From the NCBI GenBank assembly GCA_040752415.1, contig JBFMGU010000005.1, forward strand, positions 2,988 through 66,987: a DNA stretch of 64,000 nt, in the 5' to 3' direction. The notes under the pieces were generated by a model. The model was not told where the DNA came from. It did not search any database and saw nothing but the letters and a program-made list of their open reading frames with translations. How positions within the stretch are numbered: position 1 is the stretch's first letter; each line of letters starts with the position of its first letter. Shown here one piece after another: positions 3,282-17,534 of this stretch. This stretch comes from Myxococcota bacterium (lineage in GTDB: Bacteria; Myxococcota; JACRCW01). The position numbers and the translations under genes are program-made.

Positions 3282-4145
3282 TCAACGTAGCGCAGCGCCG
3301 CCCCTGCCCTCCGTCAGCAACGCGTCGACGATGCCGTGGAACACCGCCCTCTCGCCCTCCTGACCCACCGCCGCAATCGGCGTTCCCTCGTCGCATGCCA
3401 CGCGGATGCGCTCGTCCAAGGGGATCTCCCCCAGGAACGGCACGCCGTAATCCTCCGCCAGCATCCGTCCCCCGCCCTCCCCAAAGGGCCGGTACACCAC
3501 TCCCGTGTCCGGCGCGACGAAGCAGCTCATGTTCTCCACCACGCCCTTCACCGGCACGCCCACCTCCAGGAGCATGCGCAGGGCGCGACGCACGTCGTCG
3601 GTGGCCACGGTCTGCGGCGTGGTCAGGACCACTGCGCCGGTGATGGGGAGCTCCTGCGCCATGGTGAGCTGCACGTCGCCCGTGCCCGGCGGCATGTCGA
3701 TGATCAGGTAGTCCAGCGGGCCCCAGGCCACGTCGTCCAGCAGCTGGATGATGGCCGCGGTGGCCACCGACGAACGCCAGATGAGCGGCGTGTCCGACTC
3801 CGGCATGGTCAGCCCCACGCTCATCACCTTCATCCCAAAGTTCTCCGCCGGGACCATCTTTCCGTCGTCATTCCACCGCACGCGCTCGTCCTCCACCTGC
3901 AGCATGCGCGGAACGCTGGGCCCGTACACGTCGGCATCCAGGATGCCCACCACAAACCCGCGCTGCGCCAACGTGCTGGCCACGTTCACCGCCACGGTGC
4001 TCTTGCCCACGCCACCTTTCCCGCTGGTGAACACCAGGACGTTCTTCGCCCACGGAGCGCGGTTGTGCGGAGCACGCGTGTGTCCCCAGGTGATGTCCGG
4101 CTCCTCGCCTTGCTGGCGCGGACGGCCAATCTGGACCAGCGCCAT
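3282..4145 (-). CDS. mrp: Mrp/ApbC/NBP35 family Fe-S cluster carrier ATPase
   Basis: SGKGGVGKST, DADVYGPS, DMPPGTGD, GVVENMS motifs; start overlaps upstream stop (TGATG). Confidence 0.93.
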   Translation of the reverse strand: MALVQIGRPRQQGEEPDITWGHTRAPHNRAPWAKNVLVFTSGKGGVGKSTVAVNVASTLAQRGFVVGILDADVYGPSVPRMLQVEDERVRWNDDGKMVPAENFGMKVMSVGLTMPESDTPLIWRSSVATAAIIQLLDDVAWGPLDYLIIDMPPGTGDVQLTMAQELPITGAVVLTTPQTVATDDVRRALRMLLEVGVPVKGVVENMSCFVAPDTGVVYRPFGEGGGRMLAEDYGVPFLGEIPLDERIRVACDEGTPIAAVGQEGERAVFHGIVDALLTEGRGGAALR

Positions 4146-4549
4146 CACAGACACCCCTTGAAGGCACCCGGCTTCGGCTTGCGCGCCACGGTGTATTCCT
4201 CGACGTCAACCGTGGCCACGCCGGTCTTCTTGTCCAACTTCACCACCTTGCCGGTGAAGTCGATGCTTCCGCCGCCGAACGCCTTCTCCAGCTCAAAGCG
4301 GAACACCTTGCGGGAGGAGATCCGGTAGATCTGCATCTCCGCCACGTCGACAACGACGATCTCCTTCTGCGCCTCCGCCAGCGGACACGCCGTGATGCCA
4401 TCCAGCTTGCCGCTCTCGCGTGCCGCCAGCGCGCAGGAGAGCGCGGTCACCGCACCGGACGTGACCTCCACCTCCTCGCCCTTCTCCACGGCACCCGCTG
4501 GGACAGCCGCCAACAACACCGCCACGGAGAAACCAATGACCCGTCTCAT
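4145..4549 (-). CDS. Small secreted protein with C-terminal KPKPGAFKGCL tail
   Basis: Sec-type signal peptide; two internal Cys plus penultimate Cys; translationally coupled on both sides; GGAGG RBS. Confidence 0.8.
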   Translation of the reverse strand: MRRVIGFSVAVLLAAVPAGAVEKGEEVEVTSGAVTALSCALAARESGKLDGITACPLAEAQKEIVVVDVAEMQIYRISSRKVFRFELEKAFGGGSIDFTGKVVKLDKKTGVATVDVEEYTVARKPKPGAFKGCL

Positions 4550-5730
4550 GGGGCCTCCTCCTGTTCCGTCGACGTCGTGACGCCCAGCGTGCGCAGGTAC
4601 GCCACCATCGCCGCCACGTCCTCCTTGGACATCGTCCCGAACGAGGGCATGCGCGAAACCCGTTTTCCCTGCGCATCCACCGTCGACCAGTCGGATAGAC
4701 CGCTGGTGGGGAAGACCTCCGTCACGCCCGGGGCCTGCGGACGGCGCAGGTGCTGATTGGGATTGGGCGAAGGCACCACCACCTCACTGGGCTGCGTGAT
4801 GGAATCCCGGAGGTAGGACGGGCTGGCAATGCCGCCAATGGTGGTGAGGTCCGGCGCCATGCCCGGAGCCGCCAGCCGCTTCTCACCGACGTGATGGCAC
4901 GCCACGCACACCGACTCCACCAGGATCCTTCCCTTGGCCACGTCGCCCAGGTCGCCTGGCCGGTGGCCCCACGCCACTTCGTTCACATAGCGTTCACTTA
5001 GCGCGCGGTTGGGAACGCGCAGGAACTTCCACGCGGTCAACGACTTGTTGCCACCTCGCTCGCTGTGGTTCCCGTCCCAGACCGCCAGCGCAAACGGAAT
5101 GAGCCCCTGACGCAGGTCACCGCCATGCGCCACGAGCGGACGGACGAAGACGGCGCGCCAGCGGTGCGTGGTGACGTCGTAGCCCAGCGACATCCGCACT
5201 CCGTCCATCGCCGCACGCGTGGAGGACCCGAAGCCGGCCGCCACCGCGGTGCGCACCACTTGGCCCGTCGACGCGGCGCGCTGGTGGTAGAGCACCACCG
5301 GGTTCGCCTCATCCCCCATGCCCACGTACGGCAGGCGGATGCCCTCACCGAAGCGCTGGGGAACCTGCAGCGCCACTGCGTCGCCAAAGACGCTCGTCTC
5401 ATCGGGGCGAATGCGATCCTCCGTGGCGTCCTCCCACTCCACGTGGACACCAATCTCGCTCGACGAGACCGCAGCGCGGACGGACAGCTTCCTCGGCTTC
5501 GCCGTTTGCAGCGCCGCGTTCGCCACCTTGTCGTTGAGATGCAATGAATGTTGGGGATAGGCGAGCACGGTGGCCGGTGGAATGGATCTCCACAGCGCGT
5601 CGTCAACGCGGTCAGGAATGGGGCCCTTCACCTCCTGCACCAGCACCGTCTCCGACGTCATGAATGGATCCCCGGCACTGGCGCTCACCACCGCCTGCAA
5701 GCCCACCATGACGAACAGCAGCGTTCCCAC
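4546..5730 (-). CDS. Type II DMSO reductase family gamma subunit (EbdC/DdhC/SerC-like haem b domain) fused to a cytochrome c domain
   Basis: EWEDATED, DAVALQVP, PYVGMGD (Met), AVWDG...ERGGNKS (Lys) resemble the EB_dh haem-b domain; C-terminal CVACH...MPSF. Confidence 0.85.
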   Translation of the reverse strand: MGTLLFVMVGLQAVVSASAGDPFMTSETVLVQEVKGPIPDRVDDALWRSIPPATVLAYPQHSLHLNDKVANAALQTAKPRKLSVRAAVSSSEIGVHVEWEDATEDRIRPDETSVFGDAVALQVPQRFGEGIRLPYVGMGDEANPVVLYHQRAASTGQVVRTAVAAGFGSSTRAAMDGVRMSLGYDVTTHRWRAVFVRPLVAHGGDLRQGLIPFALAVWDGNHSERGGNKSLTAWKFLRVPNRALSERYVNEVAWGHRPGDLGDVAKGRILVESVCVACHHVGEKRLAAPGMAPDLTTIGGIASPSYLRDSITQPSEVVVPSPNPNQHLRRPQAPGVTEVFPTSGLSDWSTVDAQGKRVSRMPSFGTMSKEDVAAMVAYLRTLGVTTSTEQEEAP

Positions 5731-5733
5731 GAC

Positions 5734-6783
5734 TCACCTCACCGGCGGCGCGGAGACCGCCTTCACGCCACGGCGACCAATCTGCACGAGGCCGTTCTCC
5801 TGCGGCGCGCCAATCCGGAACATCTCGCTGTGCTTGTACGCAATGAGAACGTCCATGAGCTCGGAGCGCTTGCCCTCCTTGCGCTTCTTCATCTCCTTCT
5901 CCAACGTCGCCAGCGCGGGACGCACGCCGCTGCCAAACAGGCTCTCCAGGTAGGAGATGGGAATGCGCTCACTGTTGGGAATGGGCTTGCCGTCCTTGTC
6001 GAACTTGGGCGGGCCCGGGAGTGGGGGCACGTAGAAGACGTTGGGCTGCGTGCCGTACTCGGGATGCAGCGGCAGCGCGACCTTGTACTCATTTACCAGC
6101 TTGTGGACCTGCCCGTCCTTGTCGTCGAGGTAGCCGACGAAGCGGATGCGTCCCACGCACTGCTGAGCGCACGCCGGCGGCAGTCCCTTCTCGACGCGCG
6201 GAAAGCAGAAGATGCACTTCTCCGACTTATAGATCTTCGGGTTGAAATAGACCTTCTTGTACGGACACCCGGCAATGCAATAGCGCAGCCCCTCGCACCG
6301 CTGCTGGTCGACGAGAACCACGCCGTCCTGGTCCCGTTTGAAGATGGCCCCTCGAGGACACGCGGCCAGGCATCCCGGGTTGGAGCAGTGGTTGCAGATG
6401 CGCGGCAGGTAGAAGAGGTGGGAATTCGGGAACTCACCCGCGCCTTCATCTTCGTCCCAGTTGGGCCCCACGCGCGGGGTTCCCTGCGGTTCAATCTCGT
6501 GGCCCAGGGCGGCTTCGTCGAGATTCAGATCCCACGGCGTGCCGTAATCGGCGGAACGGTTGGGCACCACGCCTTCTTGCAGGTTGCCCGCGGCGTCAAA
6601 GCCTCCTCCCATGTCCTCCCACTTGCGCGGATAGCCGGCGCCCGGCTTCGTCTCGACGTTGTTCCAATACATGTATTCGCGGCCATTGCGATTGGTCCAC
6701 TGGGTCTTGCAGGCCACGGTGCACGTCTGGCAGCCAATGCACTTGTTCAGGTCCATCACCATGGCCAGTTGTCGCTTGGACAT
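5734..6783 (-). CDS. Type II DMSO reductase family beta (Fe-S) subunit, NarH/SerB/EbdB-like
   Basis: DLNKCIGCQTCTVAC; WNNVETKPG; CNHCSNPGCLAACP; CEGLRYCIAGCPYKK (3Fe-4S type); CIFCFPR...CAQQCVGRIR; HPEYGTQPNVFYVPP. Confidence 0.95.
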   Translation of the reverse strand: MSKRQLAMVMDLNKCIGCQTCTVACKTQWTNRNGREYMYWNNVETKPGAGYPRKWEDMGGGFDAAGNLQEGVVPNRSADYGTPWDLNLDEAALGHEIEPQGTPRVGPNWDEDEGAGEFPNSHLFYLPRICNHCSNPGCLAACPRGAIFKRDQDGVVLVDQQRCEGLRYCIAGCPYKKVYFNPKIYKSEKCIFCFPRVEKGLPPACAQQCVGRIRFVGYLDDKDGQVHKLVNEYKVALPLHPEYGTQPNVFYVPPLPGPPKFDKDGKPIPNSERIPISYLESLFGSGVRPALATLEKEMKKRKEGKRSELMDVLIAYKHSEMFRIGAPQENGLVQIGRRGVKAVSAPPVR

Positions 6784-6792
6784 GGATCCTCC

Positions 6793-9678
6793 TCAGGCCT
6801 TCGCCAGGTCGACGGTGGCTTCGTAAGCGTGCTGGTTCCCGTCCCAGTTGGTGCCGAACTTCAGGTGACCCCAGCCGTCGCTCACCTCGAGCAGGTTGAG
6901 CATGTCCCCCACGAGCAGGTTGTGACCCTTCTTCCGTCGGTACATGAACGGTTCCCAGCCATGCTCCATGACGACGGCATCGGGAGGCACGCCCGGTGCA
7001 ATCTTCGCCATGAGCACCACGTCGCCCATGTCGTTGAACATGCGGACTTCGTCTCCGTCGGAGATGCCGCGAGCACGGGCCACGTCCGGGTTGATCATCA
7101 CGTACGGGCGACCGCCACGCTGCAGGCGTTGCAGGATGGGTGACGTCTTGTACATGGAGTGGATGGACCAGCGCGCGTGCGGCGTCATGAGCAGGAACGG
7201 GAAGCGCTTGGGACGAATGGGCTCCCGCGCGGTGGGCACATGCGCGCCGGTCTCAATCCATAACGGGTGGTCCACGTAGAAGGTCAGCCGCCCCGTCACC
7301 GTCTCGAAGCGATGGCGCAGGAACAGCTGGCTCTCGAACGTGTTGTACGGCTTGTCCTTGTACAGCGGTGACGTCTTGCCCGCCTTCTCGTTGAGCACCA
7401 GGAAACCGCCGCGCTCCACCACCGTCTTCGGTGTGTTCGGCTTGAACTGGTCCACGTGTTCCAGCGCATACTCCACGGCGTCGCGGTCGGAGCGGATGCG
7501 TCCGTCCAACGTGTATTCCTTCACCAGCTCATCCATCGCGTGGAAGCCGGACTGCGTGTGCGCGGCGTCGGGAATGCGGATGTAACGCTGGTCTCCCGTC
7601 TCGCGGTGCTTGCGGGTGGCAATCTCCTGCAGCTTCTCGACGAGCAGGACCGCGATCTCCCACTCCGACTTCGCCTCACCCACGCGCTTCAAGCCAGCGG
7701 GAGGCACCGCCAGGTTGGCGAAGCGGTGATAGCCGGGATTCGTTCGGATGTCCCACGTCTCATAGTGGGAGGCGCAGGGCAGCAGGATGTCCGCGTAGGT
7801 GGCAAAGTCGCTCATGCGCACGTCGCCATACGCAATGAACCTGGCCTTCTTGAGGAACGCCTCCTTGTAGCTGCCCTTGTTGCGTCGGAAGCGGGAATCC
7901 GCGAACAGGAGGAACGTCTCCACCGTGGTCCAGTACGGCTTGCCCTGCTTCTCACCGGGGTCATTGGCGCTCTTGTCCAGCAGCGCCTGCACCTGCTTGC
8001 GGTACTCCGCCTTCCCCTGCCCGGTGCTGCGACGCACGTCCTCGTCGGCGAAGTGCTTCTCGTAGTCGTTCATGCCTTCGCCCAGCACGAACTCACTGAC
8101 GAAGCCGGAGGCAAAGCGGTGCGTGTAGCGACCGTCGAAGCCGGAGAGTCCCTGCAGCCCGGTGATGTTCCACTCGTTCTCGGTGTTGAGGCCGCCATTC
8201 GGACCCAGCTTGCCGGTGAACGCGGCCAGCGCCGCAATGGCACGCTGGGAGAGCATCCCATTGAAGTGCTTACCCACCGCGAAGCCCATGGTGATGACGC
8301 CATTCTTCGCCGTGGCCAGGTCGTGCGCCAGCTCGTCGACAATCCGGGGATGCACACCGGTGAGCCTGGCGGTCTTCTCCGCGCTGAAGCGACGCAGCTC
8401 CTCTTTCATGACGGAGAACGCCGTGGTGACCTCCACCTCCTTGCCGTCCTTCAGCCTGAGCTTCCAGCGTCCATCCAGCGCGGGGTTCACCTTCCAGGAG
8501 ATGTCCTCCAGCCGCAGCGTGTCGACGGTACTTCCCTCACAACCGGGAAGGGGCGTGAACTTCTTTGTCCTCGTGTTGAACGCCAGGAAGACCTCATGGT
8601 CCTTGGCGCCCTCCCCCGCGAAGATGGCGCGGAGGGCCTTGTCAAAGCGCGGGTCCCCCTCGTCGACATCGTGGAGGCGGACCAGCTCCCGGGTGTCCAG
8701 TCGCACCAGAAGCGGGAGATCGGTCAGCTCCTTGAGGTGGCGTTCCTGGTAGAGCTTCTTCTCGATCATCCGCTGCAGGATGGCCAGCGCGAGGTGACCG
8801 TCGTAGCCGGGCTTGAGCGGGACCCAGAGGTCGGCGTGGATGGCGGTGGAATTGAACTCCGGAGTGATCACCACCACCTTGGAGCCGTTGTACTTGCCCT
8901 CCCAGATGTAGTGCGCGTCGGGGATGCGCGACGTGTTGGGGTTGCAGCCCCAGAAGATGGAGAGGTTGGTGGTGTAGAGGAAGTCGTAGGTGCAGCCGAT
9001 GTTCCCTTCGCCGTAGACCACCGACGCGCCGGGAAACATGTCTCCCACGTAGCTGGCAATGTACGGACGCACGGCCCCTAACAGCGTGCCCAGCCGCTTG
9101 ATTGACGCAGCGCGCGCCTCGGTGAGCAGACCCGCGCCGACGTGGATGTAGTTTCCCTCCGGGCCCTTCTCCAGCATGGTCTTGTAGAGCTGGTTCGCCA
9201 CCTCGGTGAGGGCTTCATCCCAGGAGATGCGCTTCCACTTTCCCTCCCCGCGCTCCCCCATGCGCTTCATGGGGTACAGCAGGCGGTCCGCCTCATACAT
9301 GACCTGCGAGTGCTGCACGCCCTTGTTGCAGCCGCGCGGGTTGGCGTCGGGAATGTCCGGAGCAATCTGCGGATAGGAAGCGGACTGGTTCTCCCGCGTG
9401 ACCCGCCCGTCCTGGACCCAGACTTCCCACGCGCAATTCCCCTGGCAATTCACGCAGTGGTACGCAAAACCGTGGGCCTCACCGTCGCCATACGTGCCGG
9501 CAAACTCCTGGCGATAGAGATCTTCGGTGGACTTCGTGTCCGGATAGGCGGTGCGCGGGTCGTCCACGCGGACCGGGTGGGGAAGCGGCTGTTCCTGCTG
9601 GGCCACCGCGCGACTCGCGGCGCCCGCCGCCCCCACTGCCAACAGGTTCTTCAGGACGTCACGACGGGAAAATGGCAT
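6793..9678 (-). CDS. Type II DMSO reductase family Mo-bisPGD catalytic alpha subunit, Tat-exported (Ser/Clr/Ddh/Ebd-like; substrate unknown)
   Basis: SRRDVLK Tat signal; FS0 motif HCVNCQGNC...NPRGCNKG; likely Asp Mo ligand in SYVGDMFPG; WGCNP; TPHARWSIHS. Confidence 0.93.
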   Translation of the reverse strand: MPFSRRDVLKNLLAVGAAGAASRAVAQQEQPLPHPVRVDDPRTAYPDTKSTEDLYRQEFAGTYGDGEAHGFAYHCVNCQGNCAWEVWVQDGRVTRENQSASYPQIAPDIPDANPRGCNKGVQHSQVMYEADRLLYPMKRMGERGEGKWKRISWDEALTEVANQLYKTMLEKGPEGNYIHVGAGLLTEARAASIKRLGTLLGAVRPYIASYVGDMFPGASVVYGEGNIGCTYDFLYTTNLSIFWGCNPNTSRIPDAHYIWEGKYNGSKVVVITPEFNSTAIHADLWVPLKPGYDGHLALAILQRMIEKKLYQERHLKELTDLPLLVRLDTRELVRLHDVDEGDPRFDKALRAIFAGEGAKDHEVFLAFNTRTKKFTPLPGCEGSTVDTLRLEDISWKVNPALDGRWKLRLKDGKEVEVTTAFSVMKEELRRFSAEKTARLTGVHPRIVDELAHDLATAKNGVITMGFAVGKHFNGMLSQRAIAALAAFTGKLGPNGGLNTENEWNITGLQGLSGFDGRYTHRFASGFVSEFVLGEGMNDYEKHFADEDVRRSTGQGKAEYRKQVQALLDKSANDPGEKQGKPYWTTVETFLLFADSRFRRNKGSYKEAFLKKARFIAYGDVRMSDFATYADILLPCASHYETWDIRTNPGYHRFANLAVPPAGLKRVGEAKSEWEIAVLLVEKLQEIATRKHRETGDQRYIRIPDAAHTQSGFHAMDELVKEYTLDGRIRSDRDAVEYALEHVDQFKPNTPKTVVERGGFLVLNEKAGKTSPLYKDKPYNTFESQLFLRHRFETVTGRLTFYVDHPLWIETGAHVPTAREPIRPKRFPFLLMTPHARWSIHSMYKTSPILQRLQRGGRPYVMINPDVARARGISDGDEVRMFNDMGDVVLMAKIAPGVPPDAVVMEHGWEPFMYRRKKGHNLLVGDMLNLLEVSDGWGHLKFGTNWDGNQHAYEATVDLAKA

Positions 9679-9694
9679 GGCAGCTCACGGGGGC

Positions 9695-10156
9695 TCAGAG
9701 ACAACCGCCTCCCGCGCCAGGCTTGGGCGGGGAGTACTCACCGGAATCCTCGGGCAGGCCTGCTTCACTCCATGCCTTCATCCCGCCGGCGAGGTTGCGG
9801 GCATTGACGAAGTAGCCCAGGCATTTCCCGTGTTCCGCCCGGCTCCCCTCGTCGGAGACCACCACGGTGGGAACCGACGGCAGGATGCGTTCCTGGATGA
9901 CCTCGGGAACCGCCTTGGCGTCACAACCGGGGAACGGGATGGCCCCGGGAATGTGCGTGCCCTCGTAGTTCTCCGACGGATCCGGGCGCACATCCACCAC
10001 CTGCACCTGGGCGCGGGCCAGCGTTTGATAGAGCTCCTTCGGCGTCAGCGGCAGCTGCTGCTCCAGCCTCGCCTGACGTCGACCTTCCGCGACGTTCAAG
10101 AAGCCCAGCACCAGGATCAGGACCGCGTAGCCCACGGGTTCCAGGACGCGCTTCAT
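9695..10156 (-). CDS. Membrane-anchored rhodanese-fold protein with C-terminal PPKPGAGGGCL tail
   Basis: N-terminal TM helix; VVDVRP, THIPGAI, LAGGMKAW rhodanese signatures; active-loop position reads VVVSDEG (no Cys). Confidence 0.85.
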   Translation of the reverse strand: MKRVLEPVGYAVLILVLGFLNVAEGRRQARLEQQLPLTPKELYQTLARAQVQVVDVRPDPSENYEGTHIPGAIPFPGCDAKAVPEVIQERILPSVPTVVVSDEGSRAEHGKCLGYFVNARNLAGGMKAWSEAGLPEDSGEYSPPKPGAGGGCL

Positions 10157-10284
10157 GGCGTTGCTCCTTGCCCGCTGGTGGCCACCTTCTGCTCCAGCTC
10201 GGCGTTGTGACGACGCAGTCCAAGCCAACCCACCAGCAGCCCGACGATGACACCGACGAAAAGCACGCGAACGGATTTCTTCAT
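10153..10284 (-). CDS. 43-aa single-TM membrane peptide
   Basis: MKKSVRVLFVGVIVGLLVGWLGLRRHNAELEQKVATSGQGATP; fills the operon gap; ATGA overlap with the downstream gene. Confidence 0.6.
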   Translation of the reverse strand: MKKSVRVLFVGVIVGLLVGWLGLRRHNAELEQKVATSGQGATP

Positions 10285-10294
10285 CGCTTCGCCC

Positions 10295-11422
10295 TCAGTC
10301 GTAGACGCGGTCGCCGCGGAGCTGCGCCTGGGTGAGATCCAGGGAGCGCAGGACCAGGAGGCGTGCGTTGGACGTCGCCATGGACGCCGCAAAGAAAGTT
10401 CCCGCCATGGCCAGGCTACCCAGCGACAACGTGGGCCACGCGGAGATGAACGCACCGGTGGTGCATCCGCCGCCAATCATGGCTCCCAGGCACATCACGG
10501 TGGTGGCGGAGAACGTGGTGATGATGGCCTTCACGTCGAGCACGCGCTCCACCGGCTGGGCCACCGCGGCCCGGGACGGGATGGAGAACATCCGCGCGAG
10601 ATAGCCGCCAGGAAGCAGTCCCACGAAGAGCGCGGCGCGCCACAGGATGTCGTCGTTGATACGAGGCACCAGCTCCAGCGGATGGCCCACCAGGTGGAAC
10701 ACCCAACCCACGAATGCCAGCACACCGCCGGAGAACCCCAGGTAGCCGCCCTGCCACGTGGCCATGACGACGAGGATTCCCGCCACGGTTCCCGCCGCGC
10801 CCCAGCTCCACTCGCCACGGATGTAGTCCATCACCGTGGTGCGCTCGCGCGCGGGTTCATACGAGGCTTCCGGTGTGAGCCGGTCCACCACCAGCGCAAT
10901 CACCATGAACAGCCCACCCCACGCCAGGGCCAGCGCGCCATAGGGGAGTCCCAACACGCCGTGCAGCGTCAGCGGCTTCTGGTTGACGGCGATGATGCCC
11001 GCGTTGGTGAGCGGATCCTTTAGCGCCGCATAGAGCAGCACCCCGACAAACAATCCCACCGTGGCAGCGGTGGCAACCCACTTCTTCTCCCCGCCCCGAC
11101 CGCCCGCCTTGGCAACACAGGTCCCGGGGCACAATCCGGAGACGCCCATGGCCGCACCAAACAGCACACCGCCGAGGACGTGGGCGTAACCCAGGAACGG
11201 CATGACGCGGGGCACCAGGCCAAGGCCCTCGGAAACACCCAGCGCGGCAGCCAATCCGTAGAGCAAGGAGGCCACGCCAATCGCGGTGAATGCGAACTTC
11301 ATGACCTTCGTGTCGCGTAGGGTGAGCATCCCCATGACGCGCGAGTACCGGGTAGCGCCCACCTTGTAGAGGACGACCCCAAACGCCATCCCCGTCATGG
11401 CCCCTTTGACGAAAGCAAGCAT
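10295..11422 (-). CDS. YeeE/YedE family sulfur-compound (thiosulfate-type) transporter, two fused halves
   Basis: Multiple TM helices; GGVLFGAAMGVSGLCPGTC and GAMIGGGCTTG motifs. Confidence 0.9.
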   Translation of the reverse strand: MLAFVKGAMTGMAFGVVLYKVGATRYSRVMGMLTLRDTKVMKFAFTAIGVASLLYGLAAALGVSEGLGLVPRVMPFLGYAHVLGGVLFGAAMGVSGLCPGTCVAKAGGRGGEKKWVATAATVGLFVGVLLYAALKDPLTNAGIIAVNQKPLTLHGVLGLPYGALALAWGGLFMVIALVVDRLTPEASYEPARERTTVMDYIRGEWSWGAAGTVAGILVVMATWQGGYLGFSGGVLAFVGWVFHLVGHPLELVPRINDDILWRAALFVGLLPGGYLARMFSIPSRAAVAQPVERVLDVKAIITTFSATTVMCLGAMIGGGCTTGAFISAWPTLSLGSLAMAGTFFAASMATSNARLLVLRSLDLTQAQLRGDRVYD

Positions 11423-11440: not shown

Positions 11441-12388
11441 TCACTGCTGCGGCGTGCCCAGCGGCAGCGACTCCGTGTTGCCCCACTCATTCCACGAGCC
11501 CACGTACAGCTTGGTGTTCGCGTGACCGGCCTTGCGCAGCGCCAGGTACTGGAAGGATCCGCGGCCCAGTCCCACGTGGCAGTAGCTGATGACCGTCTTG
11601 CTCGGGTCGTAGCCATTCTTCTTGAGCTTCTCGAGCTGCTTCTTGAGATCGTCGGCGTCGCGCAGCGTCGGCTTGTCCGCATCACCGCCCTTGTTGCCGG
11701 CGTACTTGCTCCACGGGGAGAACACCGCGGTGGGGATGAATCCGCCGCGAGCCACCGTGACCTCCTTGCCGGGAGACTTCATGCCCGCCTGCAGCGTCTT
11801 GCCGGTGTACTCATCCAGGTTGTGACGCGCGTCGACGATGAGATAGTGCGCACCGTCGCCCGTGGCCTTCTTCACCTCGTCAACCGAGGCGATCATGTCC
11901 CACTGGACACTCGGTGTGAACGTCTTGGCCGCCGGCTTCTTGGCCGCGCCGGTCTCCAGCGCGCCACCATGCGCCTTCCACGTGGCCAGGCCTCCGTCGA
12001 GGATCTTCACGTTCTTGTGACCGTAGAGCGCCAGCAGGAACCAGTTGCCGCTCGCGTTGACGCCGGCGCCCCCGTCGTAGACCACCACCTGCGTGTTGGC
12101 GTCGATCCCCAACTCGCCGCCAATCAGCTTGGCCGCGTTGGGCTCACACAGCGGGAGCCCCTTGCACGCGCGCACGTCGTCCAGCAGCGGAATGTCATGC
12201 GCATACGCCACCACGGAGCCGGGAATATGGCCCTTCTCGAACTCCTTTTCAGCGTCGGAAAAGACGAAGCGGACCTCCGGCTTGCCGGCCAGTGCCTTGG
12301 CTTCCTCCACGCTGATGAACAGCTCGTCCGCGCGCGCGGATGGCGCCACCAGGAGTCCCACGACGGTCAGGAACAACGCCTTTTTCAT
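11441..12388 (-). CDS. Periplasmic tandem-domain rhodanese/sulfurtransferase
   Basis: Sec signal (…PSARA); GHIPGS; LDGGLATW; catalytic YCHVGLGRGS; LYVGSWNEW. Confidence 0.9.
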   Translation of the reverse strand: MKKALFLTVVGLLVAPSARADELFISVEEAKALAGKPEVRFVFSDAEKEFEKGHIPGSVVAYAHDIPLLDDVRACKGLPLCEPNAAKLIGGELGIDANTQVVVYDGGAGVNASGNWFLLALYGHKNVKILDGGLATWKAHGGALETGAAKKPAAKTFTPSVQWDMIASVDEVKKATGDGAHYLIVDARHNLDEYTGKTLQAGMKSPGKEVTVARGGFIPTAVFSPWSKYAGNKGGDADKPTLRDADDLKKQLEKLKKNGYDPSKTVISYCHVGLGRGSFQYLALRKAGHANTKLYVGSWNEWGNTESLPLGTPQQ

Positions 12389-13092
12389 TTCGCCTTTCTC
12401 CTTCTTGAAACAGAGGTCGCGGACACACCCGGACGAGGTGCCTTGCGCCCCCGCGGGCGGTACGCCGCCACGTCGGGAAAACCGAGATCAAGGTGCCGCG
12501 CCTGGAAGCCCACGGAAGCCAGGAGATTCACGGCCTCCAGGGCCATGGGGCAGTAGGGACCGCGGCAATAGGCCACCACTTCGCGTCCTTTAGGGATCTC
12601 CGCCAGACGACGACGCAACTCATTGAGCGGGATGCACAGCGCGCCCGGCAGGTGCCCGGATTGGAACTCCTCCGACGGACGGACATCCAGCAGCGTCACC
12701 TCGTCCGCCTCAATCCGCGCCAGGAGCTCTTCGCGCTCGTCGTCCGCCAGCGTCTTCAGCGCGCCGCGCAGCCGGTCCATCTCCGGCAGCCGGACCTCCG
12801 CCAGGCCGCGCAGCGCCGCAAAGAACGCCGACACGGACTCATCCGCCAACCGATAGATCACGCGCTGGCCTTCCTTGTGTGACTCCACCAGGCGCGCCGC
12901 GCGGAGCTGCTGCAGGTGCTGGGAGGTGTTGGTGAGCGCAACGCCCGCCGCTTCCGCCAGGGTTTCCACGCTGCGTGGCCCCTGACGCAGGAGGTCCAGG
13001 AGACGCAGACGGATGGGATTGGCGAGCGCACGGCCGATGCGCGCGAGGTTGCTGTAGTGGGCGAGCGCCAGGGCGCGAAGGTCATTGTCCAT
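12385..13092 (-). CDS. ArsR/SmtB family regulator fused to a rhodanese domain
   Basis: LANPIRLRLLDLL...SQHLQQLRAARLV HTH; LDVRPSEEFQSGHLPGA; YCRGPYC. Confidence 0.93.
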   Translation of the reverse strand: MDNDLRALALAHYSNLARIGRALANPIRLRLLDLLRQGPRSVETLAEAAGVALTNTSQHLQQLRAARLVESHKEGQRVIYRLADESVSAFFAALRGLAEVRLPEMDRLRGALKTLADDEREELLARIEADEVTLLDVRPSEEFQSGHLPGALCIPLNELRRRLAEIPKGREVVAYCRGPYCPMALEAVNLLASVGFQARHLDLGFPDVAAYRPRGRKAPRPGVSATSVSRRRKAK

Positions 13093-13578: not shown

Positions 13579-14574
13579 TCAACGTTGCCCACTCGCTGGC
13601 GGAGAAAGCTGCTCCAGCGCGCGACGGACCTCGGTGACCAGGACGTCCCGTCGCCACTCCGCGTCTCCCGGCACGTTGGGCAGCGGGTGACATTGACGTC
13701 GCGCCACTTCCGCCACGTCCCTCCTCACCGCATCATCCCAGCTGCTCCCCGCGTACTGCTCCAGTCCCTTGAGCACCCTGGGCTGTGCCGCCAGCGCGGA
13801 GACCACCACGCAAAGGCTCACCACGCGCCCGTCGGGATCCAGGCGAAGCGCGGCCGCCACCGCCAGCAGTGGAAAATCAATGGCACTCCGAGATGCCAGC
13901 TTCCGGTACGAGCTCCACGCGGGCTGGGCGCAGTCCGGAACACGCACCTCGGTGACGATCTCGTCGTCGCGTTTGGCCACGTGTCTCGCCCCGTCCGCCA
14001 CGTAAAGCTCCGCCAACGGCAACGCGCGAACGCCGCGTGACGACGTCAGGACGACCTGCGCTCCCAGCGCCATCAGTGCCGGAGGCGTGTCCGCCGTGAA
14101 CGCCGCGACGCATCGCCTGCCGCCGGGAACCACGTGGCAGACGTCGCCGTCCTTCCGCAGGCAATGCCCCAGCGCCGCCCTCCAGAACGCGGACTGGTTG
14201 TAATAGACGCACCGTGTGGGCAGACAGAGATTGCCTCCCAGCGTTGCCGCATTGCGAATTTGCGGGCTCGCCACGACGGAAGCGGCCTGGGCAACCGCCG
14301 GCGCATGGCGCGTCACCACGGGCTCCTCGGCCAGGCGGGAGAGGGTGACGCCCGCGCCGATCACCAACGTGCCGTCGTCCTGGATGCGGATGTGTCGGAG
14401 TGCGTCAATCCGTGAAAGGCTCACCAGGACCGACGGCGACGCCAGGTCGTTCTTCAACGCGGGGAGGAGATCCGTTCCGCCGGCCACAAGCTGTGCGCCT
14501 GGCGTGCCTAGAGCCCTCAAGGCCTCATCCACCGTGCTCGGTCGCACGACGTCAAACGCGGGCAGCGGCAGCAT
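13579..14574 (-). CDS. hcrB: 4-hydroxybenzoyl-CoA reductase beta subunit (FAD, extra 4Fe-4S)
   Basis: AGGTDLLP, IRNAATLGGN, Cys insert CVYYNQS...CLRKDGDVC...C; GGAGG RBS; operon context. Confidence 0.85.
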   Translation of the reverse strand: MLPLPAFDVVRPSTVDEALRALGTPGAQLVAGGTDLLPALKNDLASPSVLVSLSRIDALRHIRIQDDGTLVIGAGVTLSRLAEEPVVTRHAPAVAQAASVVASPQIRNAATLGGNLCLPTRCVYYNQSAFWRAALGHCLRKDGDVCHVVPGGRRCVAAFTADTPPALMALGAQVVLTSSRGVRALPLAELYVADGARHVAKRDDEIVTEVRVPDCAQPAWSSYRKLASRSAIDFPLLAVAAALRLDPDGRVVSLCVVVSALAAQPRVLKGLEQYAGSSWDDAVRRDVAEVARRQCHPLPNVPGDAEWRRDVLVTEVRRALEQLSPPASGQR

Positions 14575-16864
14575 CCAGCACCTCCTTTGCATGCAAGAGC
14601 CTCAACACCTGTGAAGGCGAGAAGGGAACGGCGTTCACCCGGATTCCCACGGCGTCATGGATGGCGTTGGCAATCGCCGGAATGGACGAATGCAGCGGGC
14701 CCTCCCCTGCTTCCTTCGCACCGTACGGCCCCACGGGATCGTTCGTCTCGACGAGAATCGGGTGGATGCGCGGCACGTCGCCCGTCGTGGGAATGCGGTA
14801 GTCCAGCAGCGTGGGTCCGCGATGCAATCCCGACGGGTGGAACGTGTGCTCTTCAAACAGCGCCTCCCCCAGTCCCATCACGGCGCATCCCTCAATCTGC
14901 CCCTCGACGAGCAGCGGATTCAGCGCGGTTCCCCCGTCGTGGGCGGCCCAGATGTTCTCCACGCGCACGCGTCCCGTTTCCGGGTCCACCGTCACCTCGG
15001 CCACGTGCGCCGTGAACGAGTACGCCGGCGACGCACCAATGGTTCCGCCCCGGTACGACCCGTGCACATCCTTGGGCGTGTTGAAGTGGCCCACGCTTCC
15101 CAGCGTTCCTCCGTCGGTCTCTGCCCACTGGAATGCGTCGTGGATGGCCACCTTCTGGGCGGTGTCGCTCTGGCGCATGGCCCAACCGTCGGCCAGCAGC
15201 ACGTCGACGGACTGACAGTTCCATCGTCGTGCAACCGCGTCGCGGACCTTGTCACCGAGCTGACGCGCAGCCATCAGGCACGCATTTCCGGCCATCAACG
15301 TGATGCGGCTGGAGTACGCGCCCAGGTCCACCGGCGTCAGGTCCGTGTCGGCTGCCAACACGCGGACTGACGTCGGCAGTACCCCCAGCTCCTCGCACGC
15401 AATCTGCGCGAGCATGGACATGGCGCCCTGGCCGATGTCGCTGACGCCGCTGAAGATCGTCACGCGCCCGCTCCGATCCACTTTCATCTGCACCGCGCTC
15501 TGCGGCATGTCATTCGGATAGATGGGGTAGTTGGTTCCACTGATGTAGAAGCTCCCCGCCACACCCACCCCGCGACCGAATGGCAGCTTGCGGAACTTCT
15601 CCTTCCATCCGCTCGCCTTCTCCACCCGCTCCAGGCATTCCGCGAATCCGTTGGAACGCACCAGCAATCCATTGACGGTGCGATTTCCCCCTTCCAACAG
15701 GTTCCGCCGTCGGAGCTCCATGGGGTCCAGGCCCAGCTTCTCCGCCAGCTGATCCACCGCTACCTCGAATGCGAACCGCGGCTGCACGCTTCCGTGACCA
15801 CGCTTGGGACCGCACGCCGGCTTGTTGGTGTACACACGACGAGCGTCAAAGCGATACGCCGGCAGGTGCAGCGGAGCCGCCAGGAGCTGACCGGAGTAGT
15901 ACGTCGTCACCAGGCCGAATGACGCATACCCGCCACCGTCGATGTCGATCTTCGCGTCACACCCGGTAAGCCGCCCGTCTTTCATGGCTCCCACGCGGTG
16001 ACGCATGCGCATCCCGTGACGACCGCGGTGCGCGTAGAACACCTCCTCACGCGTGTACCGGATCTTCACCGGCCTTCCCGTCATCATCGCCAGCTTGGCA
16101 ACGCAGAATTCCAGGTCGAACGGCTCGCTCTTGCCACCAAACCCGCCGCCCACGTTGGGCTGGATGACCCGCACGCGGTCCATGGGCAGCTCGAGAACGC
16201 GCGCCAGCTCCCGGTGCAGGTAGTGGGGAACCTGCGTGGCGCTGATGACCGTGAGCACGCCGTGGGGCTCCACCTGTCCAATCGCGCAGTGCGGCTCCAT
16301 GGCCACGTGCGTGGTGCTCTCGAACGTCGATTCCAGGTCGACAATCACGTCGCTGGCGGCCAGCGCGGCTTCCACGTCGCCGAATGCAAGCTCCACGTGC
16401 TTCAGCACATTGCCGTGCTTGTTGCCCTCGTGGATGACGGGCGCTCCAGGCGCCAACGCTTGTTCCACCGTCGTCACGGCCGGCAGCGGCTCGTAATGCA
16501 CCGCCACCGCGTTCGCGGCCCGAGCCGCGGTTTCCTCATCCAACGCCGCAACCGCCGCCACCGCGTCGCCAATGTAGCGCGCCTTGTCGACGCACAACAC
16601 GTGCTCGTCCTGCGTCCACGGAATGATTCCGTATGGATGCGGCAGATCCTTTCCGGTGATGACCGCCAGCACACCGGGAATCCGCATCGCCGCGCTCGCG
16701 TCCACGCCGAGAATGCGTGCATGGGCATGCGGGCTGCGCACGATTCGACCATGCAGCATCCGTGGAAGCCGGATGTCGTCGGTGAACCGCGCCTGTCCGG
16801 TCACGCACGCCGCCGCGTCTCCCTTGGGAGTCCGGCGCCCCACCATCCAGCGACGCTCACCCAT
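14552..16864 (-). CDS. hcrA: 4-hydroxybenzoyl-CoA reductase alpha subunit (xanthine oxidase family Mo protein)
   Basis: VGGGFGGK, GPKRGHG, GAYSSR, GAKEAGEG motifs; adjacent to bcr cluster. Confidence 0.85.
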   Translation of the reverse strand: MGERRWMVGRRTPKGDAAACVTGQARFTDDIRLPRMLHGRIVRSPHAHARILGVDASAAMRIPGVLAVITGKDLPHPYGIIPWTQDEHVLCVDKARYIGDAVAAVAALDEETAARAANAVAVHYEPLPAVTTVEQALAPGAPVIHEGNKHGNVLKHVELAFGDVEAALAASDVIVDLESTFESTTHVAMEPHCAIGQVEPHGVLTVISATQVPHYLHRELARVLELPMDRVRVIQPNVGGGFGGKSEPFDLEFCVAKLAMMTGRPVKIRYTREEVFYAHRGRHGMRMRHRVGAMKDGRLTGCDAKIDIDGGGYASFGLVTTYYSGQLLAAPLHLPAYRFDARRVYTNKPACGPKRGHGSVQPRFAFEVAVDQLAEKLGLDPMELRRRNLLEGGNRTVNGLLVRSNGFAECLERVEKASGWKEKFRKLPFGRGVGVAGSFYISGTNYPIYPNDMPQSAVQMKVDRSGRVTIFSGVSDIGQGAMSMLAQIACEELGVLPTSVRVLAADTDLTPVDLGAYSSRITLMAGNACLMAARQLGDKVRDAVARRWNCQSVDVLLADGWAMRQSDTAQKVAIHDAFQWAETDGGTLGSVGHFNTPKDVHGSYRGGTIGASPAYSFTAHVAEVTVDPETGRVRVENIWAAHDGGTALNPLLVEGQIEGCAVMGLGEALFEEHTFHPSGLHRGPTLLDYRIPTTGDVPRIHPILVETNDPVGPYGAKEAGEGPLHSSIPAIANAIHDAVGIRVNAVPFSPSQVLRLLHAKEVLDAAAARV

Positions 16865-17351
16865 GACGGGCTCCCTCCTTCCCAATCCGGCGCGCCGCTT
16901 CCTCCACGGCGTCGACGATCTTGGTGTAGCCCGTGCACCGGCACAGGTTGCCCCCCAGCGCCTTCTCAATCTGCTCTCGCGACGGTGACGACTCCGTTTC
17001 CAACAAGGCTCGCGCGCTCATGAGCATTCCCGGCGTGCAGAAGCCACACTGCGTGGCTCCCAGCTCCACGAATGCCTGCTGCAAGGGGTGCAGATCCGGG
17101 CCGCGCGCCAGCGCTTCCACGGTCTCCACCCGTCGTCCGTCCACGTCCGCGGCCAACATCAAACAGGAGAGCACCGGCGCCCCGTCGACGAGAACCGTGC
17201 ACGCTCCGCATTCTCCACGGTCGCAGCCGCGCTTGGTGCCGGGCAGATCGAGAATCTCGCGCAACAATTGCACCAGCGTCACATTGGGTGAGATCGCCGC
17301 GCGAACCGAATCTCCGTTGATGATCGCTTGGATATCCAGGAGGCGCCGCAT
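16857..17351 (-). CDS. hcrC: 4-hydroxybenzoyl-CoA reductase gamma subunit (2x 2Fe-2S); start could be 17405
   Basis: GCDRGECGACTV, QCGFCTPG, NLCRCTGY. Confidence 0.85.
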   Translation of the reverse strand: MRRLLDIQAIINGDSVRAAISPNVTLVQLLREILDLPGTKRGCDRGECGACTVLVDGAPVLSCLMLAADVDGRRVETVEALARGPDLHPLQQAFVELGATQCGFCTPGMLMSARALLETESSPSREQIEKALGGNLCRCTGYTKIVDAVEEAARRIGKEGARHG

Positions 17352-17534
17352 CTGCTTTCGCGCATCCTTTTCGTTCACCGCTTTATCTGCGCATTTTGCT
17401 GTCATTGCATCCACCCTCTGCCGCAAGAACTACGCGATCTGACGCGGAGTTGTCGACGAGAACTCGTTGACGCTGAACGATCGTTCGTGTACCAGACCGC
17501 GCATTCACGCTGCAAATGGGGAAGGGACAAATAC

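Follow-up and report, generated by a model that had tools for sequence, protein, structure and literature searches.

Gene organization around a tandem rhodanese with a lengthened loop

We analyzed a 64,000-nucleotide stretch of contig JBFMGU010000005.1 from a Myxococcota bacterium (GenBank assembly GCA_040752415.1, positions 2,988 to 66,987 of the forward strand), referred to here as the window. It carries the gene of a tandem-domain rhodanese, Rhd2, whose catalytic loop has seven residues and which lies on the minus strand among genes for a molybdoenzyme, a candidate carrier protein and several proteins with links to sulfur. In the downstream direction the gene order is ArsR-rhodanese, Rhd2, YeeE, small rhodanese, molybdoenzyme subunits alpha, beta and gamma, a protein ending in FKGCL (the FKGCL protein), and Mrp (Table 1). 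The core of this module, as we propose it, would be the long-loop rhodanese, the type II molybdoenzyme with an Asp ligand (alpha, beta, gamma) and the FKGCL protein with its oligonucleotide/oligosaccharide-binding (OB)-like fold.

Table 1. Features of Rhd2 and the surrounding module in the window (AF2, AlphaFold2; HTH, helix-turn-helix; ORF, open reading frame; PDB, Protein Data Bank; TAT, twin-arginine translocation)
Feature	Positions	Strand	Basis
ArsR-family HTH fused to a rhodanese domain, likely regulator	12385..13092	minus	Pfam, NCBIfam
Rhd2, tandem-domain rhodanese (P0001), 315 aa	11441..12388	minus	ORF, PF00581, AF2 model
Rhd2 predicted signal peptide, aa 1-20, ending ARA	12329..12388	minus	sequence reading
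Rhd2 domain-1 Cys pair, C75-KGLPL-C81	12146..12166	minus	conservation in homologues
Rhd2 catalytic loop, C270-H-V-G-L-G-R276 (Cys-X5-Arg), followed by G-S	11561..11581	minus	translation, alignments, AF2
YeeE/YedE-family membrane protein (Sulf_transp)	10295..11422	minus	PF04143, 84.9 bits
Small membrane-anchored rhodanese-homology protein, tail ...PPKPGAGGGCL	9695..10228	minus	PF00581, 47.7 bits
Molybdoenzyme alpha subunit, TAT-exported, Asp Mo-ligand position kept (VGD)	6793..9678	minus	TIGR03479, PDB matches
Iron-sulfur beta subunit	5734..6783	minus	TIGR03478, 532 bits, above cut-off 480.7
Gamma subunit, EB_dh haem-b domain fused to a cytochrome c domain	4546..5730	minus	PF09459, PF00034
Secreted 134-aa OB-like protein, tail ...KPKPGAFKGCL, candidate carrier arm	4145..4549	minus	ORF, AF2
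Mrp/NUBPL-type Fe-S cluster carrier ATPase	3282..4154	minus	PF10609, 306 bits

The catalytic loop of Rhd2 has one additional residue

The reverse complement of positions 11561-11581 reads TGC CAC GTG GGA CTG GGC CGC and encodes C-H-V-G-L-G-R, residues 270-276. This translation and every alignment made show a one-residue insertion, and the seven-residue CX5R loop (CHVGLGR) that the original prediction had read at this place is therefore real. PF00581 matched Rhd2 in two stretches with 90.9 bits (cut-off 22.2). The AF2 model, built with a 121-row alignment as input, has two alpha/beta domains with a predicted local distance difference test score (pLDDT) of 95.7 and a predicted template modeling (TM) score of 0.92. 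In the model, a strand (265-269) leads into the coil CHVGLG (270-275), and a helix (276-286) starts at R276; loop geometry was judged from length, motif and the DSSP assignment alone. C270 falls in the column of the catalytic Cys, whose conservation in the 121-row alignment is 90% or more.

A phmmer search of Rhd2 against PDB chains gave 31 matches, each a sulfurtransferase or a rhodanese-like protein. Four alignments were printed (3hwi, 3aax, 8k55 and 1urh, which is SseA), and in all four the target has a one-residue gap opposite the Rhd2 loop: 3hwi and 3aax read c-r-i-g-e-.-r-s-s and SseA reads c-g-s-g-v-t-.-a-a, against c-h-v-g-l-g-r-g-s in Rhd2. The MAFFT alignment of 121 sequences likewise has a single extra column, occupied only in the Rhd2 family and a few relatives, and the remaining rows read C-x-x-G-x-R-[SA] or CGSGVT. 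The comparison with SseA and its kin that had been proposed as a check on the insertion thus came out in its favor.

The distinction between six- and seven-residue loops on which the original prediction relied is in print, in the available parts of PMC6272796, PMC5525254 and PMC10135228. Active rhodanese loops are described there as Cx4R/T or Cx5R (PMC10135228); phosphorus or arsenic substrates go with loops of seven residues and reactive sulfur or selenium with loops of six, and the selectivity of RhdA changed when one residue was added to its loop (both in the part of PMC6272796 at hand).

The N-terminus of Rhd2, MKKALFLTVVGLLVAPSARA followed by DE, looks like a Sec signal, so that Rhd2 is probably exported, as expected of the periplasmic protein it had been called. 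Its homologues also have hydrophobic N-termini, with lipobox-like G-C motifs in some of them. The best NCBIfam match of Rhd2 is NF008557, the equivalog model of SseA (3-mercaptopyruvate sulfurtransferase), at 103.2 bits and below the cut-off of 250. Judged by its sequence, Rhd2 is a member of the rhodanese superfamily that descends from tandem sulfurtransferases, with a loop longer than six residues and a score short of the SseA cut-off. The 11-Mb genome to which the window belongs has a single long-loop copy, and its second tandem rhodanese reads CRIGERSS.

Conservation and origin of the insertion

The pattern C-x-V-G-[LI]-G-R-[GA]-[SA] is kept in 119 of the 120 close homologues (69-80% identity), and the insertion is therefore not a matter of chance. 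The domain-1 pattern C-x-GLP-x-C is kept in the same proportion; P0101 is the sole close homologue that matches neither regular expression. The extra Cys pair CKGLPLC (residues 75-81) pointed out in the original prediction is accordingly a genuine feature of this family. It is present in all 30 Campylobacterota locus rows (27 genomes) and absent from subclade B (described below), so that only one of the two long-loop subclades retains it. The pair may form a disulfide, as the original prediction supposed. In a set of 22 long-loop sequences with identities as low as 30%, Y269, C270, G273 and R276 never vary, and the conservation of G275 is 90% or higher.

A quick IQ-TREE tree was computed for 103 tandem rhodaneses from the 121-row alignment, with the loop column retained; 16 of 20 close homologues (P0002-P0116) and two rows with fewer than 25 residues in the catalytic-domain stretch were left out. 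All 17 long-loop rows fall in one clade of 19 members with a Shimodaira-Hasegawa-like approximate likelihood ratio test (SH-aLRT) support of 100, and the two short-loop members of this clade are P0161 and P0248. The long and short loop states require a minimum of two changes on the tree, compared with a mean of 16 when the states were shuffled. The long-loop consensus, C-x-x-G-x-G-R-[GS]-[ST], marks this one well-supported clade. Subclade A comprises the family of the window and a Campylobacterota family, and subclade B has the loop C-[QNHG]-x-G-[ILMF]-G-R-S-T. From these sequences, the long loop appears to go back to a single ancestral one-residue insertion within the tandem sulfurtransferase lineage. 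By the same sequence reading, the insertion turned a C-x-x-G-x-R loop into what looks like a Cys-X5-Arg cradle, close in pattern to that of the classical protein tyrosine phosphatases (PTPs).

Among the short-loop relatives from metagenomes, five loci (L143, L151, L153, L157 and L158) have an in-frame stop at the position of the catalytic Cys (H*QAGIRAAH). If this stop is TGA, they would be candidate selenocysteine rhodaneses.

The long loop accompanies a type II molybdoenzyme

The genome collection yielded 80 loci, 30 with a long loop, which are also those with at least 38% identity, and 50 with a short loop. The alpha subunit adjoins the rhodanese in all 30 long-loop loci, and beta and gamma are present wherever the contig reaches. 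The hosts are Anaeromyxobacteraceae and other metagenome-assembled genomes (MAGs) of Myxococcota, one MAG labelled Enterobacterales, and Campylobacterota. No alpha neighbor was found in any of the 50 short-loop loci (Chloroflexota and ammonia-oxidizing archaea, reading CRIGERSS), three of which have only a 27%-identical beta-like match 8 kb away. Rhd2 is carried by 27 of 301 Campylobacterota genomes, in each case with the long loop, the CX5C pair and alpha directly downstream.

A metagenome scan for subclade B gave another 80 loci, 18 with a long and 62 with a short loop. YeeE and/or alpha occurs in all 11 long-loop loci of subclade B that have at least 1 kb of downstream sequence; alpha is seen in nine, and in the other two, whose contigs end early, the intervening YeeE gene is seen instead. 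The other seven long-loop contigs stop within 830 bp. Alpha, beta and gamma are absent from all 62 short-loop metagenome loci, many of which are on short contigs. The long loop thus strictly accompanies the molybdoenzyme module.

The alpha subunit scores 790.6 bits with TIGR03479 (cut-off 984.75), and gamma scores 101.7 bits with TIGR03477, also below the cut-off. The closest solved structures of alpha are PcrA (4ydd, 393 bits) and EbdA (2ivf, 330 bits), with which its H-x3-C-x3-C motif for the FS0 cluster (HCVNCQGNC) and its VGD align; its TAT motif is SRRDVLK. Read for clues to the substrate, this alignment yielded only the retention of the Asp ligand and the FS0 motif. The enzyme has the features of the type II dimethyl sulfoxide (DMSO) reductase family, namely a TAT signal, the FS0 motif, an Asp ligand, a NarH-like beta subunit and an EB_dh gamma subunit. 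In databases, the alpha homologues bear generic names or are called "nitrate reductase/nitrite oxidoreductase". Nitrosophilus alvini, N. kaiyonis and Sulfurospirillum arcachonense are among the species to which such homologues are assigned.

The other genes of the module vary more. YeeE is syntenic in all 23 Myxococcota loci compared (L001-L023) and in the subclade-B loci, the ArsR-rhodanese gene lies upstream of Rhd2 in 14 of the 23, and an Mrp gene lies near the module in Myxococcota and Campylobacterota loci. The small rhodanese-homology protein has no Cys at the canonical catalytic position (VVVSDEGSRA) and has a Pro-rich linker; a scripted search recovered its ...AGGGCL tail in 17 of the 23 loci. 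In Campylobacterota, the order is rhodanese, alpha, beta, gamma and a small secreted protein ending in ...APPPPKKSFFKGCL; YeeE and the small rhodanese are missing, and a NarJ-type chaperone and a ferredoxin-like protein are added.

Further genes were seen beside the module. In six Campylobacterota loci (L114-L119), a divergent trio upstream of the rhodanese encodes an LRV-repeat protein, a protein of about 117 residues that belongs to no family, and an Mrp/NUBPL ATPase that carries a FeS_assembly_P domain at its N-terminus. Two of the six (L114 and L115) also have, near the module, a DUF3373 porin-like protein and a small secreted protein ending in ...SDSGNVPSC, and L117 has the porin-like protein without the other. 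In the window, a SorA-like molybdenum enzyme of the sulfite-oxidase family (PF00174, PF03404) and a cytochrome c are encoded upstream of the module on the plus strand (335-2670). We do not count the SorA-like gene as part of the core because matches to it (39-42% identity) occur in only 3 of the 23 Myxococcota loci, and not at a constant position. A CoxLMS-type molybdenum hydroxylase set, with a subunit that binds flavin adenine dinucleotide, an 805-residue subunit that binds the molybdenum cofactor and a 2Fe-2S subunit, lies beside the module at 13579-17426 on the minus strand and apparently outside it.

The linkage bears on what the loop could do. One explanation makes Rhd2 an ordinary sulfurtransferase of the Sud type that carries a persulfide. 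It would exchange sulfane sulfur, derived from polysulfide, thiosulfate or SoxY, with the FKGCL protein or the molybdoenzyme, and the extra glycine would only adapt the loop to a protein partner and leave the chemistry as it was. We take this to be a real contender, if on the unlikely side: Rhd2 is closest to CysA2/CysA3, the Thermus rhodanese, SseA and RhdA, 3-mercaptopyruvate sulfurtransferase is its best NCBIfam model (even if below the cut-off), its gene neighborhood is related to sulfur, and the long-loop clade is nested among short-loop sulfurtransferases with two short-loop members inside. However, the insertion, with G273, G275 and R276, is held down to 30% identity and only in the clade linked to the molybdoenzyme, and such retention across deep divergence argues for a specific requirement. 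The loss of sulfur selectivity on adding one residue to RhdA, reported in the part of PMC6272796 available, also speaks against a mere adaptation.

A second explanation is that Rhd2 is a non-catalytic accessory subunit whose Arg-capped loop captures a substrate or product of the molybdoenzyme with no covalent Cys chemistry. Two clade representatives keep G-x-G-R-[GA]-S with Ser in place of Cys (P0157 and P0182), and P0157 has also lost the domain-1 pair, as would suit such a role. Cys270 is nevertheless retained in every loop read at a locus (30 genome loci, 27 Campylobacterota genomes and 18 metagenome loci) and in 119 of the 120 close homologues, and we consider this explanation quite improbable. 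We give still less credence to a periplasmic phosphatase, convergent with Cdc25 and the PTPs and unrelated to sulfur. The loop pattern is close to the PTP signature and there is the precedent of the engineered RhdA cited in PMC6272796 (as far as its available text goes), but Rhd2 has no His before the Cys, and its gene is strictly co-located with those of a redox molybdoenzyme, a Cys-arm protein and sulfur-related proteins. The favored reading, set out below, is that the loop handles a sulfonate bound to cysteine.

The FKGCL protein as a candidate carrier

The original prediction had supposed a "GCL arm" from which an oxidized product might be released. Two such protein ends exist in the operon: ...FKGCL, encoded at 4145-4549, and ...GGGCL, on the small rhodanese (9695-10228), which is the second arm of this kind. 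FKGCL is invariant in all 33 aligned homologues, which are otherwise 19-63% identical to the protein of the window and come from three clades, one in Myxococcota, one in Campylobacterota and one from metagenomes. Elsewhere in the protein, two Cys and one Gly are likewise invariant in these 33 sequences, and in subclade-B loci the gene lies just upstream of the rhodanese. The AF2 model (pLDDT 87.1) has a beta-rich OB-like domain at residues 26-122 and no secondary structure at residues 123-134. The protein matches no Pfam family; Foldseek with its model returned nothing at E <= 0.001 and weak OB-fold rows only, and a protein-atlas search returned unnamed clusters only.

When Rhd2 was co-folded with the FKGCL protein, the pair scored 0.55, compared with 0.00 for the best of three controls. 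The runs agreed in at least 79% of contacts, with a partner pLDDT of at least 78. In the calibration, 116 of 157 solved complexes and 2 of 215 mismatched pairs reached this score, and only 18 of the 157 solved complexes and both mismatches lay at 0.60 or under. The model thus lends weak support to a pairing of Rhd2 with the FKGCL protein.

Sulfur-related gene context and distribution relative to SoxCD

YeeE and the ArsR-rhodanese regulator link the operon to sulfur, and a TauE-family gene lies two genes from the carrier gene in locus L135. In genome G043, soxY, soxZ, soxA and soxB, all above the NCBIfam cut-offs, lie directly beyond the divergent Mrp gene of the module. In this locus (L200, G043:C1:1841000-1858000), the soxYZAB genes occupy positions 6476-9838 with no soxCD, adjoining the Mrp gene. 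Next to them come a porin-like gene and three small genes, and one of the small genes gave a weak DsbD/TsoB-like match. By their names, the Campylobacterota hosts of the module are mostly sulfur oxidizers.

Of the 301 Campylobacterota genomes, 46 have SoxB, 42 have SoxC above the cut-off and 27 have the module. The 46 genomes with SoxB comprise 32 that have SoxC only, 12 that have the module only, one that has both (G147), and one that has neither by the cut-off (G252, in which SoxC is split over two contig ends). Within SoxB-positive Campylobacterota, the distributions of the module and of SoxCD are complementary. According to the part of PMC4288042 available to us, SoxCD acts as the sulfane dehydrogenase, organisms without SoxCD accumulate S(0), and Sulfuricurvum genomes including the bin PC08-66 encode SoxAXBYZ and lack soxCD. 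An alpha homologue (P0302) is named from Sulfuricurvum sp. PC08-66, and the "Nar" call made for this bin in the same part of PMC4288042 may therefore mean the present alpha enzyme.

The linkage of the long loop to the module and its complementarity to SoxCD both fit an oxidized, tetrahedral sulfur group. A rival explanation is the handling of selenium or arsenic oxyanions, in which the molybdoenzyme would be a Ser-like reductase of selenate or another oxyanion or an arsenite oxidase, Rhd2 would bind or reduce selenite, selenate or arsenate as Acr2 does, the FKGCL protein would supply a resolving thiol, and YeeE/YedE would import selenium. Rhodanese-fold enzymes with a CX5R loop are arsenate reductases (PMC6272796 and PMC5525254, in their available parts), SerA belongs to the type II family (preprint 10.1101/317552), and an upstream gene in L033 has an N-terminus that resembles ArsC of the low-molecular-weight phosphatase type by eye. 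Rhd2 also matches the NCBIfam model ExtH weakly at 53.3 bits, although this is far under its cut-off of 200. No ars or selenium-utilization genes recur in the loci examined, the module adjoins soxYZAB and is complementary to SoxC in SoxB-positive genomes, and its Campylobacterota hosts are mostly sulfur oxidizers. We therefore regard a selenium or arsenic role as improbable.

Proposed role of the module

We propose that the module oxidizes sulfur on a periplasmic carrier arm and that the Arg-capped seven-residue loop of Rhd2 handles a cysteine-bound -SO3 group, a reading that we favor while giving it somewhat less than an even chance. In this proposal, the tail cysteine of FKGCL, Cys133 of the carrier, would carry sulfane sulfur. 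The molybdoenzyme would oxygenate the sulfur on the arm with water and pass the electrons to cytochrome c, doing the job that SoxCD does on SoxY. The Rhd2 loop would then bind the resulting thiosulfonate (Cys-S-SO3-) and transfer or hydrolyze it, regenerating the carrier; alternatively, Rhd2 may load a sulfonate-bearing donor such as thiosulfate onto the arm. Classical tyrosine phosphatases hold a tetrahedral -XO3 group on their catalytic cysteine, and the Cys-S-PO3 intermediate is similar in shape and charge to Cys-S-SO3 (S-sulfocysteine). The additional components in Myxococcota (the YeeE-type protein, the inactive ...GGGCL rhodanese and the ArsR-rhodanese) may serve import and sensing. The substrate, the direction of the reaction and the step performed by Rhd2 are what we infer from these patterns.

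Several points weigh against this proposal. Chemically, a thiolate normally attacks a thiosulfonate at the sulfenyl sulfur and releases sulfite, and a PTP-like transfer of the sulfuryl group is unproven. The nearest relatives of Rhd2 in sequence and fold are ordinary sulfurtransferases, and a persulfide could still be carried on the longer loop. Where Cdc25, Acr2 and PTPs have a His before the Cys, the long-loop sequences have an invariant Tyr, and in P0157 (SHYGAGRGS) and P0182 (SQTGTGRAS), which are Campylobacterota-type long-loop rhodaneses, the catalytic Cys itself is replaced by Ser. The closest solved relatives of alpha reduce perchlorate or hydroxylate ethylbenzene, and the modeled pairing of Rhd2 with the FKGCL protein gives weak support. 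As to distribution, the association between SoxC and the module among the 46 SoxB-positive genomes (Fisher p = 4e-9) is uncorrected for shared ancestry, and in all 301 genomes SoxC occurs in 1 of 27 with the module and 41 of 274 without it, a difference short of significance (p = 0.15). SoxB accompanies the module in 12 of the 27 module-positive Campylobacterota genomes, so a SoxB-like release step by Rhd2, as envisaged in the original prediction, would not be needed everywhere. Fourteen of the 27 have neither SoxB nor SoxY, and the genome of the window (96.8% complete) has no SoxY and no SoxB above the cut-off. Overall, the sequence features claimed at the outset were found as described, and the interpretation placed on them is partly supported.

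A wider and joint reading, which we offer with considerable doubt, is that Rhd2, the FKGCL carrier and the type II molybdoenzyme constitute a previously unrecognized sulfane-sulfur dehydrogenase pathway in which a convergent phosphatase-type P-loop handles cysteine S-sulfonate. As part of the same doubtful reading, this pathway would take the place of SoxCD in Sulfuricurvum, Nitrosophilus-type and other Campylobacterota and would be autonomous in Anaeromyxobacter-type Myxococcota. If true, it would explain the formation of sulfate by sulfur oxidizers that have neither SoxCD nor Dsr. The module around Rhd2 may be a new system: no published description of long-loop bacterial periplasmic rhodaneses, the FKGCL protein or this molybdoenzyme clade was found in a search that did not extend to subscription journals and closed supplements.

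The six- versus seven-residue rule is the main predictor of chemistry at the sequence level in the rhodanese/Cdc25 superfamily, and the natural seven-residue cases named in the available parts of the loop papers cited above are those of the Cdc25 and Acr2 lineage only. The present clade adds a natural, bacterial, tandem-domain group of predicted exported proteins that made the same change independently and has retained it throughout its association with one particular molybdoenzyme. It offers a defined system for testing the rule, with one enzyme, one 134-residue carrier and one glycine. The module is unannotated yet common in soil Myxococcota and in Campylobacterota of sulfidic habitats (27 of the 301 genomes sampled). 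Its complementarity to SoxC makes it testable how sulfur oxidizers that lack SoxCD, such as Sulfuricurvum in the available part of PMC4288042, handle sulfane sulfur.

Comparison with known systems

The best sequence matches of Rhd2 are the tandem sulfurtransferases CysA2/CysA3 (3hwi/3aax), Thermus 1uar, RhdA 1e0c and SseA 1urh, with E values from 6e-24 to 1e-18. The fold of the model agrees with the same group (Foldseek E of about 1e-22, TM 0.7-0.8; best 3aax, 1uar and 3hwi), and all PDB rows listed by Foldseek are sulfurtransferases or EanB. These enzymes have six-residue loops (CRIGER, CGSGVT), whereas the loop of Rhd2 has seven residues and ends in Arg, and Rhd2 has in addition a predicted signal peptide and the domain-1 CX5C pair.

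Cdc25, Acr2 and LmACR2 share with Rhd2 the rhodanese fold and a seven-residue Cys-X5-Arg loop, which for ACR2 is printed as CTGSKNRG in the part of PMC5525254 at hand. They are single-domain, eukaryotic, cytosolic or nuclear proteins with a His before the Cys; Rhd2 has tandem domains and Tyr269 in this place, as do all 22 long-loop sequences. A relationship to Cdc25 or Acr2 was considered and rejected, as neither is among the 31 PDB matches or the listed Foldseek rows, and the clade is nested in the tandem sulfurtransferases. The P-loop of the classical PTPs (C-x-x-G-x-G-R-S/T, printed within HCSAGIGRSGT in the available part of PMC4138107) is near-identical in subclade B (CQSGIGRST, CNPGLGRST), and the loop of the window, CHVGLGRGS, is close to this signature with the hydroxyl one position later. 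The PTP fold is unrelated to the rhodanese fold of Rhd2, and no catalytic-acid loop was identified in Rhd2. The resemblance is therefore convergent at most. A one-residue elongation of the RhdA loop was reportedly engineered by Forlani et al. in 2003. That protein is a laboratory construct, in contrast to the Rhd2 clade, which is natural and conserved, is predicted to be exported, and has dedicated partners.

ExtH (NF040901), from a Geobacter selenite/tellurite cluster, resembles Rhd2 in being rhodanese-like and exported and in having its gene in a respiratory cluster. The identification of Rhd2 as ExtH was rejected on its score (52.1 bits in the search of its own genome), and no ExtH above the cut-off was found among the genomes searched or in 14 controls. 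Sud is a periplasmic transferase of polysulfide sulfur that serves the polysulfide reductase (Psr) of Wolinella; it has a single domain and a short loop, and Psr belongs to a DMSO-reductase subfamily different from that of the type II enzyme of the module. Both Sud and, by gene linkage, Rhd2 are periplasmic rhodaneses (by prediction in the case of Rhd2) tied to a molybdoenzyme.

By analogy, the module may be likened to the Sox system, in which a periplasmic carrier has a Cys near the end of a flexible C-terminal arm (GGCGG in SoxY) and a molybdoenzyme delivers electrons to cytochrome c. The parts themselves are not homologous: the module has an OB-like carrier, a type II enzyme of the bis-molybdopterin guanine dinucleotide class in place of a sulfite-oxidase family member, and a rhodanese in place of the SoxB fold.

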